A stretch of DNA of 56,038 bases, counting the filler, from Ionaspis alba (lineage: Eukaryota): the NCBI GenBank assembly GCA_964255285.1. It is 3 parts of 3 records of this genome, joined end to end, with 100 filler letters (N's around TTAATTAATTAA, not from the genome) between each part and the next. Parts side by side here need not be neighbours in the genome. Positions count along the whole stretch, not along the records: positions 18,815 to 37,468 come from CAXUUL010000286.1; 2 more parts are not named here. One strand, written 5' to 3'. Positions within the stretch are counted from its first letter, which is position 1. Every line of letters begins with the position of its first letter. The notes below the pieces were generated by a model. The model was not told where the DNA came from and did not search any database. It was given only the letters and a program-made list of their open reading frames with translations. The translations under genes and the position numbers were made by a program. Positions 27,397 to 36,938 of this stretch are shown piece by piece.

Positions 27397-28815
27397 ATGG
27401 AGTCATCTAGTAATATTATCGAGCGGGTTCCAAACCTTCATATAGATATCTGCACTTGCATTCCACGAGAATTGCACACGGAGTTGGTAGGATTTATTAT
27501 TGCGAAGAATTCAATCCATATAAGAAGCTAACGTCCATCACCAGGCCGCAGCTGTGGAATCGTACTTGAATACGCTTGACACACTGCCAACCAAAGGCAA
27601 CGTCCCTCTTCCACGTAAAGGTACCCCTCCTTTGCTGTCCTCCTCTCATCTGACTTCGCCATAGCGGATTTGGAGACCAGATACAATATCGACTTCGTTC
27701 GGGTGAATCGTTTTGGGAGACCCGTCGACATAGATATCGAAATCCACCCTAGAGAGCATCGTCTGGTTTGCAAGACCTTCTACCTGCGGAACCTCCTAAT
27801 AGACCCCTTCAAGGAGCTTCCGGCTGACACGAGATGCATTGCGCTTCCGTCGAAAGAAATCGACGACTTTGCCTTATTCGATCGACCTTTCGCTTTCGAT
27901 ATCTTTGCAAGCCTTGTGAAGAAGTTGCGTTTGCCAAGCACGATCGACAACCTTGCAGCAGCATCTAGAAAGAATGGTGACTGCATCGTGGTCCGTGGTG
28001 CATACGGTAGTCATAAAACGAGATTGTGCCTGAGTCTAGCACAAAGTCTTTCCATTCGCTTCTGCCATTTATACCGGTCGTTCCAAGCCATCGAACTGGA
28101 CGCTAAGGACCTGATCCGTAACCGAGAGGAGCTGGCGTGTAAACTCATAGAGGACACCTTTATAGCTATCGACCGAATGGTGGAACGTGGCAACTCGACG
28201 ATGTATATCATCCTGGTCAAGAACCTCGACCAGTTGAACTATGCACCATTGCTCCAAGTCGCGAAAGGAACGACTTGGATCAGTGAACGAGGTAATGCCA
28301 TTACAATGTGTACAGCCAGTGAAGAGTTGGCCCATGACGTTATCAAGTCACTTTATACCGATTTTGACCAATGGAACGTTGAAACACCGAACACAGAGAG
28401 AGTCTATGGATATCTTCGAGATCTCTACTCTTACTTTCCAGAGAGGTTCCGTGATGTGCCTATTCCGGGAATGCCAATAGATGAACTTGCAGAAGCCAGT
28501 CCGTATGAGAAGGGCGAATTTCCGGTATGGGATCCGTCAGGGGAAGGGTTGAGCAAACTCTCGGAGGACGAAATGTCTCTGGCTTCAAGGCTCGTGAACG
28601 TTGCTGGTAGGGCTAAAGAACACAACTGGCATGAGATTGAGCGTATGGTCCATCTTTCAAGGAGATTCATTGACGGTGCCTGTTCAAGAGATCAGTTCGT
28701 TAAAGTCCTCGAGCGAGGTATGAGCTGGCTGCACAGCGGACGAACATCTCCAATGCCTGAGCTTAGTCGGATGGAGTCATGGCTCTCAAATATCGAGCCT
28801 GGGAATCCTTACTAG
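27397..28815 (+). CDS. Highly diverged Pch2/TRIP13-like AAA+ protein with degenerate catalytic motifs, 3 exons (27397-27486, 27545-27620, 27665-28815)
   Basis: CIVVRGAYGSHKTRLCLSLAQSLSIRFCHLYRSFQAIELDAKDL...KLIEDTFIAIDRM...YIILVKNLDQL parallels the Pch2/TRIP13 stretch [24 protein letters not shown]...Y...LIEINSHSL...KLV..MF..I...VFVLIDEVESL. Two frame-preserving introns link it to ATG 27397. Confidence 0.72.
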
Positions 28816-30999: not shown

Positions 31000-31935
31000 G
31001 GATGTCTAGTCCGTGGCGACTCAAGTAGAGGCAGCTGCAGCACCGAACGGTGTTTTGAGCATAGACTGGCGTCCTGGAGCGACGGCAGAGCTTAGATTTG
31101 GGCCTGATGGTAGATGCAATACACGATCAGTCGTGAGTAACAAACCATACCCAAGGAGGCCGGAATACTGTGGCCAATCATTTGAAAAACAATTGGCTCT
31201 CTAAGTGGGGAATGACAAGAAATCCTCGACCTAAATAAGCCAGCGGCATGACCCACCACTATCACTATGAAATTTAGCTAACTGTTGCACGTGCGTTTCA
31301 TGGCTTCGGTGTGGGATATTTATGTCACCCGTCTCAACATGATCGATCACTCGTGTACCAGAAAGGATCTCCCGCAAAACAACGGAATCTGACCAAAGCG
31401 GCCGATTTTCATATTAAGAATGATTTTTCCGTTGCCTTTTTATTAATTCTTGAACCGATCAAATGGCGTTCTGGATCCCAAAACATCCAATTCAGTGGTT
31501 GAAATGTTTCGTTATGAAGTTTCTCACAACCGCAGCTTTGATCATCGGTCATATTCGATTTAAACAGCACTATGGAGATATCATGGGACTTGTGGTAAAT
31601 TGATAATATGTGAATACCTTCGATACATTCTAACAATGTATCATGAAGTCTTGGCATATTAGTGGGTTAAATTCCCCACGCCTCGCACGGTTGCCCATAT
31701 CGATATGCTCCAAAACCCCGCAGTACCCACGAGCATCACTCACTCCCTCGTTCCGCTGAATGGCCTCGTCTTCAATGTAGATTGAGTTGCTCCACTGTCC
31801 CCTCAATGGAACAATGAGTCATAGATCACCGTTGAAACGGCACGCAATTTCAAGAGCAGAGATGTGAGGATAGCTGCGCGAAGCTACCCAATGCTTCGAA
31901 AGGAAACCTACGGGTCAAAAATACGTAGATTCACC

Positions 31936-32952
31936 ATGTTTACACCACGTAACACAACAAGCAATTCCTTTCAAACCCTCAGCAACATCCGACTCGAAGC
32001 CGCTGGACTTGTCGCCCTCGCCGACCTGACCTCAATAGCCAAATGGACCGCCATCACGGGCACCGCATCATGGCTCGATGTCTTCTTTCTCGCACCGGGC
32101 ATGCACCGGCAGCAATCCGCGTCCGAGCTCAACGGTGGAGAATATCCCCCCACAGCCGCAATGACCACGGGGTATGTCTTCCGCGTCGAGAACCAAGCTA
32201 CCGTTCGCTATCTGCAGACAATGGGCAAGCCGGGACATCTTGTCAACATCTTCGTGGAAGCAGAGCCGTCCAGTGCTCCGCATCCGGGTCTGGGTGTTCT
32301 GATAAAGCATCTCTTTAGCAACCCATGTATGCCCGCAGCGTTCCTCTATCTCCTAGGACCTTCCGCGACCATGGCTGCGCTTGTAATGCTCGGTCTGCTG
32401 GGCGATTGGTGGGCGATGGGTATCCTGGGGATGCTGATGGTCGCCCGACTGTGCAACACCATCGTTGTGCGGCGACGGAGGGAACGCGGATGGAAGGGCG
32501 CACTCGAGCCCGGCGTCCGGGGCGATCTGCTAGTGCTTGTGAGCCAGGATCGATGGTTTCGGATCCGGGGACTGGTCGACGACCTTAAAGCCGTTACGTC
32601 GGGACAGTGGCTCCGGGAAATGAGTGGGCCGGAGGAGTTTGCGGTGAGTCTGGCTACGGTCTTGGTCTTTGTGGCGGCAGCGTTGGCGACTAATGTGTCG
32701 ACGGAGGGGAGTTTGATCATTCTATGCTTGCTGCTTGTGTCGGCGGGGATTTTGGGATTGTGCAATAGTATGGCGACGAGGCTTCATATGCATGGGCGTA
32801 TTATGAGGGTGGAAGGGCGGATGAAGAAGTACTTTCGGCGGACGGACTTGGTGGATGAACTTGTGAGGGAATCGAAAAGGAGGGATTGGGCGGAGCGATT
32901 GGGGATGGTTTCCAATCCAACAAAGGATGGTGGGAAAAGCGCTCTGTTATAA
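31936..32952 (+). CDS. Uncharacterised fungal multi-pass membrane protein (about 338 aa), single exon
   Basis: Long ORF with an ATG in good context (CACCATG) and two pairs of hydrophobic helices. Blocks GLVALADL, LAPGMHRQQ, WKGALEPGVRGDLLVLVSQDRW and DDLKAVTSGQW look conserved. Confidence 0.8.
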   Translation: MFTPRNTTSNSFQTLSNIRLEAAGLVALADLTSIAKWTAITGTASWLDVFFLAPGMHRQQSASELNGGEYPPTAAMTTGYVFRVENQATVRYLQTMGKPGHLVNIFVEAEPSSAPHPGLGVLIKHLFSNPCMPAAFLYLLGPSATMAALVMLGLLGDWWAMGILGMLMVARLCNTIVVRRRRERGWKGALEPGVRGDLLVLVSQDRWFRIRGLVDDLKAVTSGQWLREMSGPEEFAVSLATVLVFVAAALATNVSTEGSLIILCLLLVSAGILGLCNSMATRLHMHGRIMRVEGRMKKYFRRTDLVDELVRESKRRDWAERLGMVSNPTKDGGKSALL

Positions 32953-33137: not shown

Positions 33138-34282
33138 CTATTTGGCTCCCACGTCGTCAAATTCACCTCTTATCGCAGGTGTACTGTACTTCTCTGGCCG
33201 AGCCTCGCCCATTTCAAGCACCCCAGTTTCTCTTGCCCGTCGAACGTGTACATACCACCAAAGCGCGGCAACCAGGTAGATCAAGAGCATTATCCCCGCT
33301 ACACTTCCATAGATGATCTCACCCGCTGTAGTGTTAGCGGCGAGCTGCAGTCCAAGACCACCATTGATAATGCCGAGTAGGATGAGAAGGCGTCCATACC
33401 AGATGTGCATGAACGTGCGGTAGCTGGATTCGTGCTTTTGTCGGTAGTGGTTATGATGAAGGACTCCGAGTAGGGGTTGGATGAGGAAGAGAGCGATGAT
33501 TATGGTGCCGAAGATTTGGTGGGAAGTGTTCCACATCTAAGGGGGAAATGTCAGTGGTAGGAAAATACCGATCATACCCGTGGAAGGAGGAAAGACTTGG
33601 TCAGTGTTTCAAAGCATCGCTAGCAAAGGGTCGAATAGAAGGTAAAGCAGAATCTGAAGGGAGGATAGTAAACTTGCCTCATTGTGCAGAACACTAAGCC
33701 AGATACCCAATCCAAATCCAGCCAACATCAGAACCATACCAACCATCTGCCACCCAATATGCAACCATAATAAGCCTGGAAAAGAGAACAGCTTCATCAT
33801 GATTGCACCGATGGGGTAGAAGAGCACAATGGCCATGGACATGACGGTACCATGGGCGATATGAGCAACGTTTCGAGTCTCGGGGTCACCCTTCAGACCA
33901 GGTTCTTCTTCGTCTGTATCTCCATCGCCATGTCGTCTGACAAGGCTCTTTTGAGAATGTTCATCGATCAATTGGAAGATAACATCATGCTTGTTTGCTG
34001 CTTTAACGTTTGGGGGAGAAAATGCGGTTGTCGTTTCGTGGAGTATCTTTACTCCAGCCGCACTCGGCTTGTCGTGGTGTTGAGGAGATGGTGATATGGT
34101 AAACTTGGTTTCACTAACCTCCAAAAGTTGATCATTGGTTTCACGGATGGTAGAACCCCCTAAGATTAATGAGGAGGCTAATGAGTAATATCAGTACTTT
34201 GGATCACATTACAATTAGCACCGGTAACAGCAAACTTACTGGCACAGAGTAGCAGTATAGCACTCTTAGCGTATTGCTTCAT
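33138..34282 (-). CDS. Cytochrome b561 (CYBDOM-type ferric-reductase-like) membrane protein without a DOMON domain, 3 exons (34282-34240, 34177-33678, 33536-33138)
   Basis: Signal peptide MKQYAKSAILLLCATSSLILGG; candidate heme His in IAHGTVM, WLHIGWQ, SHQIFG and MHIWYGR; family motifs IQPLLG and GIINGGLGL. Intron 2 has a GCAAGT donor. Confidence 0.85.
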
Positions 34283-35608
34283 GATGAGGGACAAGTCACA
34301 GAGGTATCGGGAACTATATCAATCGAGATCCTCAAGGCAGAGTGACACCAATATTGGAACAAAAAGTGAAGAGCGACAGACGAGGTGATACACGGAGTAG
34401 ACTTGTAGAAAAGTAGACATGATACAGTGTTCTATTCTTCTATCTTGAACAGCCCTCACTATCAAGAAGGTTCCAAGTCCAGAATTTGCATTGCGAACAA
34501 CCGCATCCGGAAGGCACAAGCAGGGGTGCCTCGTTGATTCTCCGAAGCCTTGTACTGCAATATTGCGGACCACACTCTTGTAGTGGGCGTCAAGTTTGAT
34601 CTGCATATCGCTCCGCCGTCGCTCCGCCAATTGCTGTACGGCATGTGATTTGCAATGGTAGAGGACGTGCCAAAGTATCAAGGACTTCTTTGGCAGGTGG
34701 TTTGAGCGCAGATGTGATATGCAGTCCTCGCCAAGAGAAAGCAAATAGAAAAATGATGCCCAGAATGTGCGGTACCACAAAGTGAGAGCCGGGCCAGGAT
34801 GACGAATCTTGGTCGAGGGAATTGAAAGAAAGTACAGGGAATCATGGCCGGCATCAAAGCGTAGTGTAACGACTGCATGTGCCCTGTGGGGTATGTTCAA
34901 CTGGGAGGAATATCCATTGACGCCAATTTGAATCCTACAGGGCCGCGTAAGCAATTTATGGTGGTAATATCTCCTTCGCAGGGAGTCCCAGAAGCTGTTG
35001 CCTACATCTGTTGAAGATGCAATACTGTTGGCCAAACCGATTGAACAGAGCTAGTAGATGCCCTGGTAGCTGCGGCTAGTCCGAGCACGGTTAAAGAAGC
35101 TGGGGCGTCCCCAGTCCGGGGCGAAACCGCAGATAATGCACAAGATGTTTATATGCGAGTTTCATGCTATGCCCCTAGCACAACTCCCCCGAGGCGATGG
35201 TGACTGAAAGCGATCTTTGATGGTTGGCTACGGGCCCCCTTCATCTTCCATGCTCACTACTTCGCCCAGACGACCTGCGCGGCTCAGTACGTATGTAACG
35301 ATGTGATCACATGAGGCAAATATTTGTGAGGCTGCCATTGCTGCTGATCAGCCTTTACTGGCTCTGCGATTGGCAGAACCATTGCGAATGGACTGCTTGT
35401 TGTGCTGCCTCATGTCAGGGTGATCAGCCATTGGAACTCCAGTCATGATATGGAAGCGGCCTTCCCTTCGTCTTCATTTCATTACCGCCGATTTTGGTAT
35501 TCGCCTGCCACTACGACTGTACCATCACACTCACAAGGTTCTATGTGACCGAGACTTCATATAGCCAAAGATCAACGACTGCTTATCTCCTTTGTATCTT
35601 GAACAGCC

Positions 35609-36938
35609 ATGAATTCTATCCTGACCTCACTCCTTGCATCAGTCATTCTTCTCCTTGCTGGAGAGTCTCTCGCACATGGAGATGATCCCGGCAATGGCAT
35701 GCCTGAAAGACGCGAGTCTTCGATCCAAGGTCCTTGCCATCACTACTGACAGCTTCGTAGCATCGAACGCCTCCAACATCACCTCTCTAGATCCTCAGTA
35801 CTTCACCGATCTAGGATCCAAAAGAGTCAAGATTGACTACGGACCTTATCCTATTTTCCCCAGCAACGTCCACGATGGCATGGCAACATATTACGAACTT
35901 GCTGTCAGGAAACCGTGCTCAGATTGCATCATCACATGGATGCAGGCTGGACTCGAGTATCCTAACGGCACGTATGCCAACGCCAATACTGGTATGTGGC
36001 TTCACCACATTCTCTTGGTGAACACAGAGAGACAGTCTTCTCTTTGTGGGTTGCAGTACCGAGGTGACCGCTTCTTTGCTTCGGGCAATGAACGTACTGC
36101 TGTAAATATTTGTGTGAACGGGTGAGGTCGTTCCTTATCACAAAGCTTTCAAATTGCGGAAGACTAACGGGTCTCTAGCACCGAGAAAGCTGGCTACTAC
36201 GTCGGACCCAACGACAACTTCGCCATGCTTGTTGAACTGATGAACGAGAACAAAGAGACTCGAGACGTCGTACCAACCATCACCTATGAATTCATCCCTA
36301 TTGTACCACCTGCCTTCAACAAGGTGGCAACGGTCTGGCTCGATATCGGTGGCTGTGATGGTTCAGAAATGCCAGCGAAGAATGGAACATTCGAGTATTC
36401 TATGGAACCGGCATGGAAAGCCAATTTCTCGGGTCGAATCACCACAATGATTACCCATCTCCACGATGGCGGCACTCATCTCGAGGTGAAGCAGAACAAC
36501 AAGACTATATGTGACAGCATGGCTGCTTATGGGCAGTCGGCGGGCTATAACGAGTCCATGAACAGTGGTATGGATATGAGTGGCATGGACATGGGTATGG
36601 CAATGACGCATATCTCATCTATGACAACCTGCGATATGATCGGTCAAGTCAATGTGGACGACGAATGGTCCGTGACGGCTCATTACAACATGACGGCTTA
36701 CACGCCTATGATGAGTAGTAACGGCACATTGGAGCCTATCATGGGCATTGCTCTCTTCTATGTTGCGAAAGGAGAGAATGCTACGACGAATGGCACTGCT
36801 ACGAGCACGGGAGATGGGAGTTCTGTTAGCGGGGCGGCATCGACGACGTCACCGACGGCAGTATCGACCGGGTCGTATGTTCAGATCGGGACGTCTCTGC
36901 TGGCCTTGTGTTTAGGCCTACTTGCTTCTTTACTGTGA
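35609..36938 (+). CDS. Secreted, probably GPI-anchored protein with copper type II monooxygenase (PHM/DBH)-like ligand motifs, 3 exons (35609-35696, 35761-36121, 36179-36938)
   Basis: Signal peptide ending SLA|HGDD; motifs WLHH, RFFASGNERT, HLHDGG, HISSM, AHYN and PIMGI; Met-rich MNSGMDMSGMDMGMAM; Ser/Thr-rich stalk and hydrophobic C-terminus. The exon 1 donor is inferred. Confidence 0.75.

Follow-up and report, generated by a model that had tools for sequence, protein, structure and literature searches.

In the open form of PHM and DBH the two metal sites, CuH and CuM, are uncoupled and lie about 11 Å apart. Whether PHM and DBH react in the open form or in a closed binuclear form is disputed, as set out in the available text of PMC12164859. 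Transcripts of plant Nod19 fall under copper deficiency, as does CSD1, according to the accessible portion of PMC3882225, the pattern of a copper consumer. A first-pass annotation of the window, the entire stretch of 56,038 nucleotides from Ionaspis alba analysed here, had proposed a surface monooxygenase module comprised of a PHM/DBH-like copper protein and a divergently transcribed cytochrome b561 as the electron donor. The results presented here partly support that reading and suggest that the head-to-head pair likely forms an oxidation module at the cell surface in which a metal site is altered.

Organization of the divergent gene pair

The head-to-head arrangement was confirmed, with start codons at 34282 (minus strand) and 35609 (plus strand) flanking a shared divergent upstream region of 1326 bases (34283..35608, assigned to neither strand). 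Searches for copper- and iron-response motifs, based on consensus sequences, revealed no enrichment in 34283..35608 and no excess over shuffles across six regions. The contig ends approximately 530 bases past the stop of the plus-strand gene.

The minus-strand gene (33138..34282) encodes a cytochrome b561-type protein of 313 aa in three exons (34282-34240, 34177-33678 and 33536-33138) that, when spliced at the predicted GT-AG (34239-34178) and GC-AG (33677-33537) introns, yield an open reading frame with no internal stop. The predicted layout is an N-terminal hydrophobic segment followed by an extracellular stretch of ~95 aa and five more hydrophobic segments. Four putative heme-ligand His codons (33405..33854, minus strand) fall within, or next to, four consecutive hydrophobic segments, H123 at 33854-33852, H154 at 33761-33759, H187 at 33521-33519 and H225 at 33407-33405, in agreement with the four b561-type positions previously noted. 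The same four motifs are present in the b561 of a homologous locus, L003, and in the proteins P0048 and P0049. The last exon scored 16 bits against PF03188 (cut-off 23), a domain split here by an intron, and the homolog P0048 passed at 25 bits; the window protein matched the b561 part of P0048, a CYBDOM, with E 1e-22. The absence of a DOMON domain also held, no Pfam family matching the N-terminal exon at E ≤ 1, and the protein, with only ~95 residues ahead of the membrane part, lacks the fused DOMON or CDH-cyt domain of a CYBDOM.

The plus-strand gene (35609..36938) encodes a predicted secreted protein of about 400 aa with a PHM fold, a relationship to SURNod19 and a GPI-like tail. Intron 1 lies between 35665 and 35760, where four in-frame candidates give 395-412 aa with the stop. 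Intron 2 is predicted at 36122-36178 (57 bases), a position common to four of the seven homologous loci checked, the other three giving no match to the pattern. Comparison with one homologous locus over 198 codons revealed 111 differences at third positions, exceeding the 60 at first and 44 at second positions, results indicating that the gene is under purifying selection. The signal peptide and GPI-like tail described earlier are consistent with hydrophobicity and a Ser/Thr-rich spacer; the Ser/Thr/Gly-rich spacer and hydrophobic end occupy 36780..36935 (plus strand), and homologs have the same type of tail. Judged from the sequence, the protein is likely GPI-anchored at the fungal surface. 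An N-terminal His brace was considered and rejected: a His follows the predicted signal peptide in the window gene only and is absent from 11 homolog N-termini.

Relationship to SURNod19 and bacterial proteins

The plus-strand gene is a member of a large ascomycete family that carries no name and is related to Pfam SURNod19. SURNod19 (PF07712) was the only recurrent Pfam match, found with 70 of 123 aligned rows at E ≤ 0.1 (best 1.7e-8). Exon 3 of the window gene alone scored 14.6 bits against the cut-off of 25, and 10 of 14 bacterial relatives scored above the SURNod19 cut-off. A type-1 copper cupredoxin terminates 8 of 22 bacterial relatives and is interpreted as carrying electrons, not as supplying copper.

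A search of NCBIfam with the family gave no match, and no relative was found on plasmid and viral contigs. Longer fused forms (alignment A4) were absent from the 8,000 candidates scored, which is weak evidence. For expression data, the identifier of a Cenococcum geophilum member was sought in 12 of the 16 supplements of PMC5023957 and was absent from them, and the Pfam names were absent from all 16. In the Atlas, SURNod19 clusters are counted in one family or clan with those of Cu2_monoox. The link between SURNod19 and the PHM fold is probably already familiar to database curators.

Predicted fold

The fold was evaluated with a metal-free AlphaFold model of the homolog P0009, 53% and 56% identical over two exons (pLDDT 84.9, pTM 0.80). 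Foldseek, the check recommended with the original proposal of a PHM/DBH-like protein, returned PHM/DBH at the top over both domains, PHM being the best match (E 1.6e-8, prob 1.00). VIA-align against 48,161 chains likewise placed PHM first (Z 15.2, 243 aligned), with lower matches to DBH (Z 11.4) and PNGase F (Z 9.2). The predicted structure of the homolog therefore bears out the two-domain fold. The model fitted closed conformers (6ala_C, Z 18.3, rmsd 3.4; 4zel_A, Z 16.5, rmsd 3.2) more closely than open conformers (1phm, Z 15.3, rmsd 4.9; 4zel_B, Z 11.4, rmsd 5.2), with overall rmsd ranges of 3.2-3.4 and 4.9-5.5 respectively.

In the window itself, exon 3 retrieved Cu2_monoox_C in 26 of 30 Atlas matches (score 0.90) with PF07712 clusters excluded. 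PF01082 and PF03712 matched neither the window exons nor any of the 123 rows at E ≤ 0.1, the connection to them being limited to indirect links by profile comparison and the Atlas. When the PDB was searched directly with fungal family sequences or profiles, PHM was not matched. Profile comparison of the N-terminal domain alone with PHM-like proteins was not significant (prob 0.5), and global hhalign with a mixed fungal-bacterial profile gave prob 0.04.

Putative metal-site residues

The His-His (36003..36008, plus strand) and His-Leu-His (36456..36464, plus strand) motifs read as first described. Profile alignment matched the former to the His-His of PHM-like proteins, the equivalent of CuH ligands H107/H108 in PHM, and the two residues are kept in 113 and 115 of 117 rows. 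The His-x-His is equivalent to CuM ligands H242/H244 and its residues are kept in 119 and 116 of 121 rows. The later Met reported in an IMG motif was found within PIMG (36735-36746); this putative CuM Met (36741..36743, plus strand), kept in 115 of 119 rows, was matched to M314 of PHM by order and by the last strand (327-337), since the profile alignment stops just before it. The CuM ligands His, His and Met are intact and 96-98% conserved.

The suspected replacement of the third CuH His proved correct. In the register of the full-length profile alignment, the Glu (36234-36236) of an E-L-M-N sequence (36234..36245, plus strand) occupies the position of PHM H172, with a Met (36240-36242) on the same strand, modeled as strand 156-164 in the homolog. 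A first guess of Met at the H172 position was superseded by this register. The third CuH position holds Glu in 94 and Asp in 23 of 122 rows (117/122 in total) and His in none, and none of the 113 complete rows has a His at +2. The Met at +2, conserved in 104 of 122 rows beside an Asn in 117 of 122, is still a candidate ligand. In bacterial rows (n = 22) the third position is occupied by His (8), Met (8) or Glu/Asp (6).

A Met-rich loop and an extra conserved His lie at 36558..36611 on the plus strand (loop 36558-36605, His 36609-36611). The His is kept in 109 of 121 rows, and the loop, of low pLDDT in the homolog model, has a mean Met count of 8.4 across the 12 GPI-tailed rows but 1.9 across the other 109. 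The ligand set HH/(E,D)/M/H/H/H/M is whole in 82 of 113 complete rows, and the non-ligand residues G130-N-E-R, W195, D197 and D238-G-G are conserved at 91-97%; conserved ligands combined with invariant non-ligand residues are as expected of a catalytic pocket. The protein likely binds copper. In terms of strict PHM/DBH membership, the fold and CuM site were found, and a three-His CuH site and PF01082/PF03712 were not. With Glu/Asp in place of the third CuH His, a Met close by and one His more, the protein falls outside that membership yet likely works like PHM/DBH.

Linkage to transmembrane reductases

In the subclade of the window gene, defined by a GPI tail and Met-rich loop, all three other lineages with readable flanks adjoin a transmembrane reductase, one a b561 and two a ferric reductase. 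The b561 at L003 is head-to-head with the family gene; the ferric reductase is head-to-head at L010 and L015 and downstream at L008, L009 and L028. The predicted protein P0072 is a family member fused to a ferric reductase. All five reductase-linked rows and the window fall in one 24-row clade (SH-aLRT 90). The window b561 is 58% identical to that at L003, and these linked b561s are mutual best matches, identity to paralogs being 33-35%; the linked FREs form their own group, joined by 0 of 7 own-genome FREs. If 14 of 6,000-10,000 genes are taken to encode reductases, a reductase neighbor is expected by chance at ~0.3-0.5% per locus. The finding in 3/3 lineages, the P0072 fusion and the 8/22 bacterial cupredoxin fusions indicate that the linkage is not due to chance.

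The microsynteny comparison thus sustained a conserved transmembrane reductase as the neighbor, but not b561 as the usual one, ferric reductase being the commoner partner, a result indicating linkage to some source of electrons in the membrane and not to b561 and ascorbate in particular. Most members outside the clade are without a GPI tail, and 0/5 such lineages, only one with both flanks fully read, show a reductase, which suggests that a linked reductase is not required for the family to function. L004, 95% identical to L003, has no b561 in 3.8 kb upstream, where transposon-like DNA fills the stretch to the contig end.

Discussion

On balance we lean toward the plus-strand protein functioning with its neighbor as a reductase-fed surface copper oxygenase. 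The b561, by analogy with its family, would take electrons from a cytosolic reductant and pass them outward, where they would reduce the copper of the enzyme either directly or via a small mediator. Loading may involve capture of Cu(I) by the Met-rich loop. As in PHM, activation of O2 would take place at CuM, where His-His-Met is intact; the second site appears from the sequence to be remodeled to His-His-Glu, accompanied by a Met close by and one further His, and coupling of the sites may come about through closure of the two domains, as predicted from one model. The enzyme would oxidise an extracellular or wall substrate with O2, the electrons likely coming from the neighboring b561. A dedicated NADPH-type ferric reductase would replace b561 in other fungi, as would a fused cupredoxin in some bacteria. 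The presence of a separate Ctr adjoining an FRE on another contig of the same genome counts for an oxygenase. Counting against it, none of the nine upstream ORFs scanned is a biosynthetic or other substrate-hinting gene, and PHM that has lost H172 is inactive or slower by orders of magnitude in the accessible text of PMC6123673 and PMC12164859.

The main and serious rival, although rather unlikely, is that the protein captures or loads copper and is not an oxygenase; in this view the reductase makes surface Cu(I) that the Met-rich loop and a merged His/Met/Glu site hold and hand on. Published work offers several points in its favor: b561-domain proteins can reduce Cu(II) (available text of PMC10784544), closed structures of PHM/DBH contain a single copper and were interpreted as loading intermediates (excerpts of PMC6123673), and Bim1 has an LPMO-like fold that hands on copper (excerpts of PMC12113139). 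Plant relatives are nevertheless repressed and not induced by copper deficiency in the accessible portion of PMC3882225. The Met-rich loop is specific to GPI-tailed rows, and the linked FREs are also Met-rich at the start, their best-scoring own-genome match being the FRE beside Ctr (30% identity); however, this Ctr-adjacent FRE was not resolved as sister in the tree, and Ctr was found neither on the contig of the window nor among the 25 flanking ORFs scanned. Also at odds with capture are the lack of any excess of CuRE-type motifs, the many invariant non-ligand residues and the bacterial cupredoxin fusions, which point to electron supply.

It is improbable that the protein is a reductase-fed redox enzyme other than a copper monooxygenase, whether with a His-His-Glu site binding Fe/Mn (mixed-metal or non-copper) or as an oxidase, peroxygenase or reductase. 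Sets of 2-His-1-carboxylate commonly bind Fe/Mn, the third CuH position is variable in the 22 bacterial rows, and ferric reductases are among the partners. Against this stand the soft, Cu(I)-type ligands of the His-x-His..Met site and Met-rich loop, the occurrence of His or Met at the third position among relatives, and the cupredoxin fusions. Most improbable is that the genes are neighbors by inheritance or shared regulation without electron flow, the protein perhaps being a non-redox binding protein or hydrolase of the PNGase F fold: the linkage is inherited, so the loci are not independent, PNGase F has the same fold (Z 9.2-9.6) and reductase-free members exist, but two unrelated reductase families occupy the neighboring slot in three arrangements at a chance of ~0.3-0.5% per locus, PHM/DBH far outscore PNGase F, and the metal ligands follow the PHM order.

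The surface oxygenase reading can be extended, speculatively, to a widespread SURNod19-like copper oxygenase class of fungi, bacteria and plants on a naturally closed PHM fold whose two metals would form a coupled site, possibly bridged by Glu, in which the third ligand of the H site, whether His, Met or Glu/Asp, would be tuned to the electron donor and one fungal clade would be surface-wired to its own b561 or FRE. No description of such a module, of the Glu-for-His ligand swap or of the reductase linkage was found in the full-text literature, searched mostly without subscription papers. The results offer a testable biochemical job for a large family of no known function, which comprises 1,200 clusters at 50% identity and has plant Nod19 stress genes as named relatives, and point to a redox module at the fungal surface that is distinct from LPMO/CDH, laccase and Fet3/Ftr1. 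With CuM kept, the third CuH His changed to Glu and the homolog modeled closed, the protein would be a natural variant and direct test case in the open-versus-closed dispute.

Comparison with known systems

The protein resembles PHM (1phm, 6ala) and DBH (4zel) in the order of its two beta-sandwich domains, His-His in domain 1 and His-x-His plus Met in domain 2, a secretory location and, presumably, the need for an external electron source. It differs in its 8-14% identity, Glu/Asp in place of the third CuH His with Met at +2, the extra His, the Met-rich loop and the GPI-like tail; it has no DOMON, PAL or dimerisation domain, the electron donor is encoded next door, and the homolog model fits closed conformers better than open ones. 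Relative to SURNod19/MtN19, a comparison made with no plant sequence in the alignment, the window gene represents a fungal branch in which the third CuH position carries Glu, and a subclade with a GPI tail and linked reductase. Bim1/Cbi1 (X325) is analogous as a GPI-anchored, enzyme-like copper fold beside metal-reduction machinery (Ctr/FRE modules), but the window protein has a PHM fold rather than an LPMO-like one, no N-terminal His is conserved in 11 homologs, and no Ctr is nearby. The window b561 shares four His on successive helices with CYBDOMs (HYP1 and fungal CDH-cyt-b561 fusions such as P0048), but has a short extracellular stretch in place of the DOMON or CDH-cyt domain. By analogy, the place of the DOMON acceptor of CYBDOMs may be taken here by the separate protein of PHM fold.

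Organization of the gene pair

Both genes were found where the first-pass annotation had placed them, the cytochrome b561 gene at 33138..34282 on the minus strand and the PHM-like gene at 35609..36938 on the plus strand. Splicing of a GT-AG intron and a GC-AG intron (33677-33537, minus strand) from the b561 gene gave a product of 313 residues with six hydrophobic segments (Kyte-Doolittle) and the four expected b561-type histidines at residues 123, 154, 187 and 225. In Pfam the last exon matched b561 weakly and the N-terminal exon matched no family, in agreement with the earlier statement that the protein has no DOMON domain. The longer relatives of the product are CDH-cyt/b561 fusions (E 1e-22), and at least three other b561 and at least nine ferric reductase (FRE) matches are present elsewhere in the assembly. 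His-Gly-Asp occurs near the predicted processing site of both proteins, after Arg-Arg in the b561 (33935-33920) and after the signal peptide in the PHM-like protein (35675-35686), and is not conserved across homologs of the latter. An intronless 375-codon frame with hydrophobic segments (31825-32952, plus strand), convergent with the b561 gene, has no Pfam family at E <= 0.001. The contig also encodes an F-box protein, an RSN1/OSCA channel, a TCP-1 chaperonin and further frames without assignment; a 398-codon frame (27619-28815, plus strand) gave no Pfam match.

Conservation of the PHM-like protein

The PHM-like gene, single copy in the assembly as searched, encodes in order HH, ELMN, HLH, a Met-rich loop, HIS, PIMG and a Ser/Thr-rich hydrophobic tail. 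Intron 1 of this gene is probably also of the GC-AG type (candidate 35697-35760). The position of intron 2 is common to four of seven loci checked, and codon differences from a homologous locus are predominantly at third positions. Close relatives were 47 of 476 candidates, those named being ascomycete 'hypothetical proteins', and a search with a full-length homolog contributed the best 150 of 1,200 clusters at E <= 0.001. The family alignment comprised 121 near-complete proteins from both searches and the two exons of the window, with residues numbered by P0009, a homolog 53% and 56% identical to those exons. His105 and His106 are kept in 113 and 115 of 117 rows; Glu/Asp161, Met163 and Asn164 in 117, 104 and 117 of 122; His235, His237 and His284 in 119, 116 and 109 of 121; and Met328 in 115 of 119. 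The whole set of ligand-type residues is present in 82 of 113 complete rows, and all are present in the window. The sole recurrent Pfam match was SURNod19 (70 of 123 rows at E <= 0.1), a family that appears to have been grouped with Cu2_monoox by Pfam already. A search of openly accessible literature revealed no paper on SURNod19-like proteins as PHM-fold copper enzymes and no description of this gene pair. Relatives encoded at loci L023, L024, L006 and L036 differ in their anchoring, with a membrane segment at the N or C terminus or with no anchor; one locus adjoins sugar transporters and another is a tandem pair.

Predicted fold

The two-domain PHM/DBH fold proposed earlier was supported by an AlphaFold2 model of P0009, confidently all-beta and two-domain (pLDDT 84.9, pTM 0.80), for which the top structural matches were PHM (E 1.6e-8), DBH and then PNGase F. 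Re-alignment gave Z 18.3 (rmsd 3.4, 239 aligned) with 6ala_C, Z 16.9 (rmsd 4.0) with 5wja_D and Z 16.5 (rmsd 3.2) with 4zel_A, all above 1phm (Z 15.3, rmsd 4.9); 4zel_B gave Z 11.4 (rmsd 5.2). In PMC6123673 and PMC4846438, 6ala and chain A of 4zel are closed conformers, and the fit to the closed form comes from one metal-free homolog model, of a kind in which hinge angles are unreliable. The fold, closed form and GPI anchor of the protein are all predicted.

Direct PDB sequence searches with the fungal family gave no PHM match. An alignment of seven bacterial Cu2_monooxygenase proteins matched PHM (E 3e-8) and DBH (2e-7), and a bacterial SURNod19-like profile matched six of those proteins over 239 columns and both domains with a probability of 90.5; a mixed fungal-bacterial profile matched the same six over 223 columns (probability 55.7). 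Scores were 0.1-0.2 for reversed controls and, among 20 block shuffles, at most 10.4 (bacterial) and 3.6 (mixed). The C-domain alone scored 92 against the Cu2_monooxygenase profile and the N-domain alone just 0.5. Atlas assigned Cu2_monoox_C to exon 3 of the window (0.90, 26 of 30 hits, SURNod19 clusters left out), a score reached or passed in 4-10% of shuffles.

The H site and bacterial relatives

The ligands of DBH are His262/263/333 and His412/414/Met487, as given in PMC4846438. An ungapped register of the fungal D-x-F-x-x-L-V-E-L-M-N with D-F-F-V-I-Q-V-H-Y-H-Y places Glu at the third CuH position, in support of the suspected replacement of this His. Starting from one actinobacterial relative, a search of 401 genomes from its phylum found matches in 46, and 22 of 25 loci returned were used after three partial or interrupted loci were dropped; 10 of 14 relatives scanned passed the SURNod19 cut-off. 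The genomes of the first match (L052/L053, G001) and of row L062 (G034) are flagged unpublished, and those of the cupredoxin-fused rows are not. Across the 22 rows, the residue at the third CuH position is His in 8, Met in 8 and Glu or Asp in 6, and the one at +2 is in every row Met, His or Asp, results indicating that the H site is remodelled and not lost. A C-terminal cupredoxin with a C-x2-H-P-x-M motif is present in all eight Met rows and in none of the 14 others; since the fused rows form just two clades, they represent two events at most.

The bacterial relatives nearest the fungal family (actinobacterial L069, L072, L073, L076 and L077) have Glu at the third H-site position and, at the N terminus, a membrane domain of several helices that contains His residues and is followed by a His-rich linker. 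Pfam gave no convincing match for this domain, which may serve as an additional partner for metal or for electron transfer. Two canonical bacterial Cu2_monooxygenases (L057:1489-3201 and L060:1480-3219) are fused to a cytochrome c domain, a parallel case of a built-in electron donor.

Linkage to transmembrane reductases

Among 37 metagenome loci encoding relatives, 13 extended 2.5 kb or more beyond the gene on one side and represented eight lineages by DNA identity, L010 and L015 (76% identical) being counted as one. In L003 a b561 gene is head-to-head with the PHM-like gene across 1,675 bases; in L010 and L015 a ferric reductase is head-to-head at about 0.7 kb, and in L008, L009 and L028 a ferric reductase lies downstream on the same strand. 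One 1,018-residue sequence, P0072, is a predicted fusion with ferric reductase, in which the gene caller may have joined two neighbouring genes. In a rapidly built tree of 160 rows, a single clade of 24 rows (SH-aLRT 90, unstarred) contained the window, five reductase-linked rows and 11 of the 13 rows labelled GPI. A reductase adjoins the gene in all three readable lineages inside this clade vs none of five others, of which L024 was read for 8 kb on each side and L023, L006/L030/L031, L027 and L036 (absent from the tree) in part. Thus, the linkage reported earlier holds for a transmembrane reductase in general, the partner being b561 in one of these three lineages and ferric reductase in the other two.

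Each linked b561 has the other as its best match (58% vs 33-35% to paralogs), and the three linked FREs form one group (92/98) separate from seven FREs of the window's own genome. No member of that group was found in the lineage of the window, where b561 occurs instead. The pattern indicates that the neighbouring slot has been filled by transmembrane reductases of two unrelated families. With assumed gene counts, a reductase would adjoin any one locus by chance in about 0.3-0.5% of cases; because the loci are related, two independent recruitments were counted and not five. No b561 was found in the 3.8 kb upstream in L004, where transposon-like DNA interrupts the region up to the contig end; this AT-rich, degenerate DNA (L004:1-3330) is inserted where L003 has its intergenic region. 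The 9-mer TGCATTGCG is common to the upstream regions of the window (34283-35608), L003 and L008, and those of L010/L015 keep CGG-rich blocks.

Proposed function

The motifs, their conservation and the gene linkage lead us to favour, by a small degree, a reductase-fed surface copper oxygenase. The b561-type donor would pass electrons outward to the PHM-like protein, which would bind copper and perform O2 chemistry at the cell surface. Animal b561 serves DBH and PAM, and erythroascorbate is used by fungi. The linked FREs have Met-rich N-termini and a Ctr-adjacent FRE as their best-scoring match, features that would also suit a protein capturing copper and not an oxygenase, as would the Met-rich loop of GPI-tailed rows (mean 8.4 Met in 12 rows vs 1.9 in 109 others) and the single copper held in closed PHM/DBH structures. 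Copper capture is nevertheless considered less likely given the cupredoxin fusions of bacterial relatives, the distinct Ctr-FRE pair on another contig of the genome and upstream regions with no excess of CuRE; further, bean Nod19, a miR398 target and a distant relative outside the alignment, falls in copper deficiency according to PMC3882225. A Ctr copper transporter is head-to-head with a Met-rich ferric reductase at G000:C78:19763-22231 (L045 and its upstream side), likely the ordinary copper-uptake pair of the window's genome.

According to PMC10784544, b561-domain proteins carry electrons from ascorbate in the cytosol to acceptors on the outside, among them Cu(II), and NADPH is the donor for FRO-type reductases. 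Loss of H172, the third CuH His of PHM, abolishes or strongly slows catalysis, as stated in PMC6123673 and PMC12164859; therefore, canonical PHM chemistry is not to be assumed for the fungal protein. Judged from the model and sequence, it probably works like PHM and DBH, which it resembles in fold and CuM site; however, PHM and DBH have a three-His CuH that the fungal protein does not have, which places it outside their membership.
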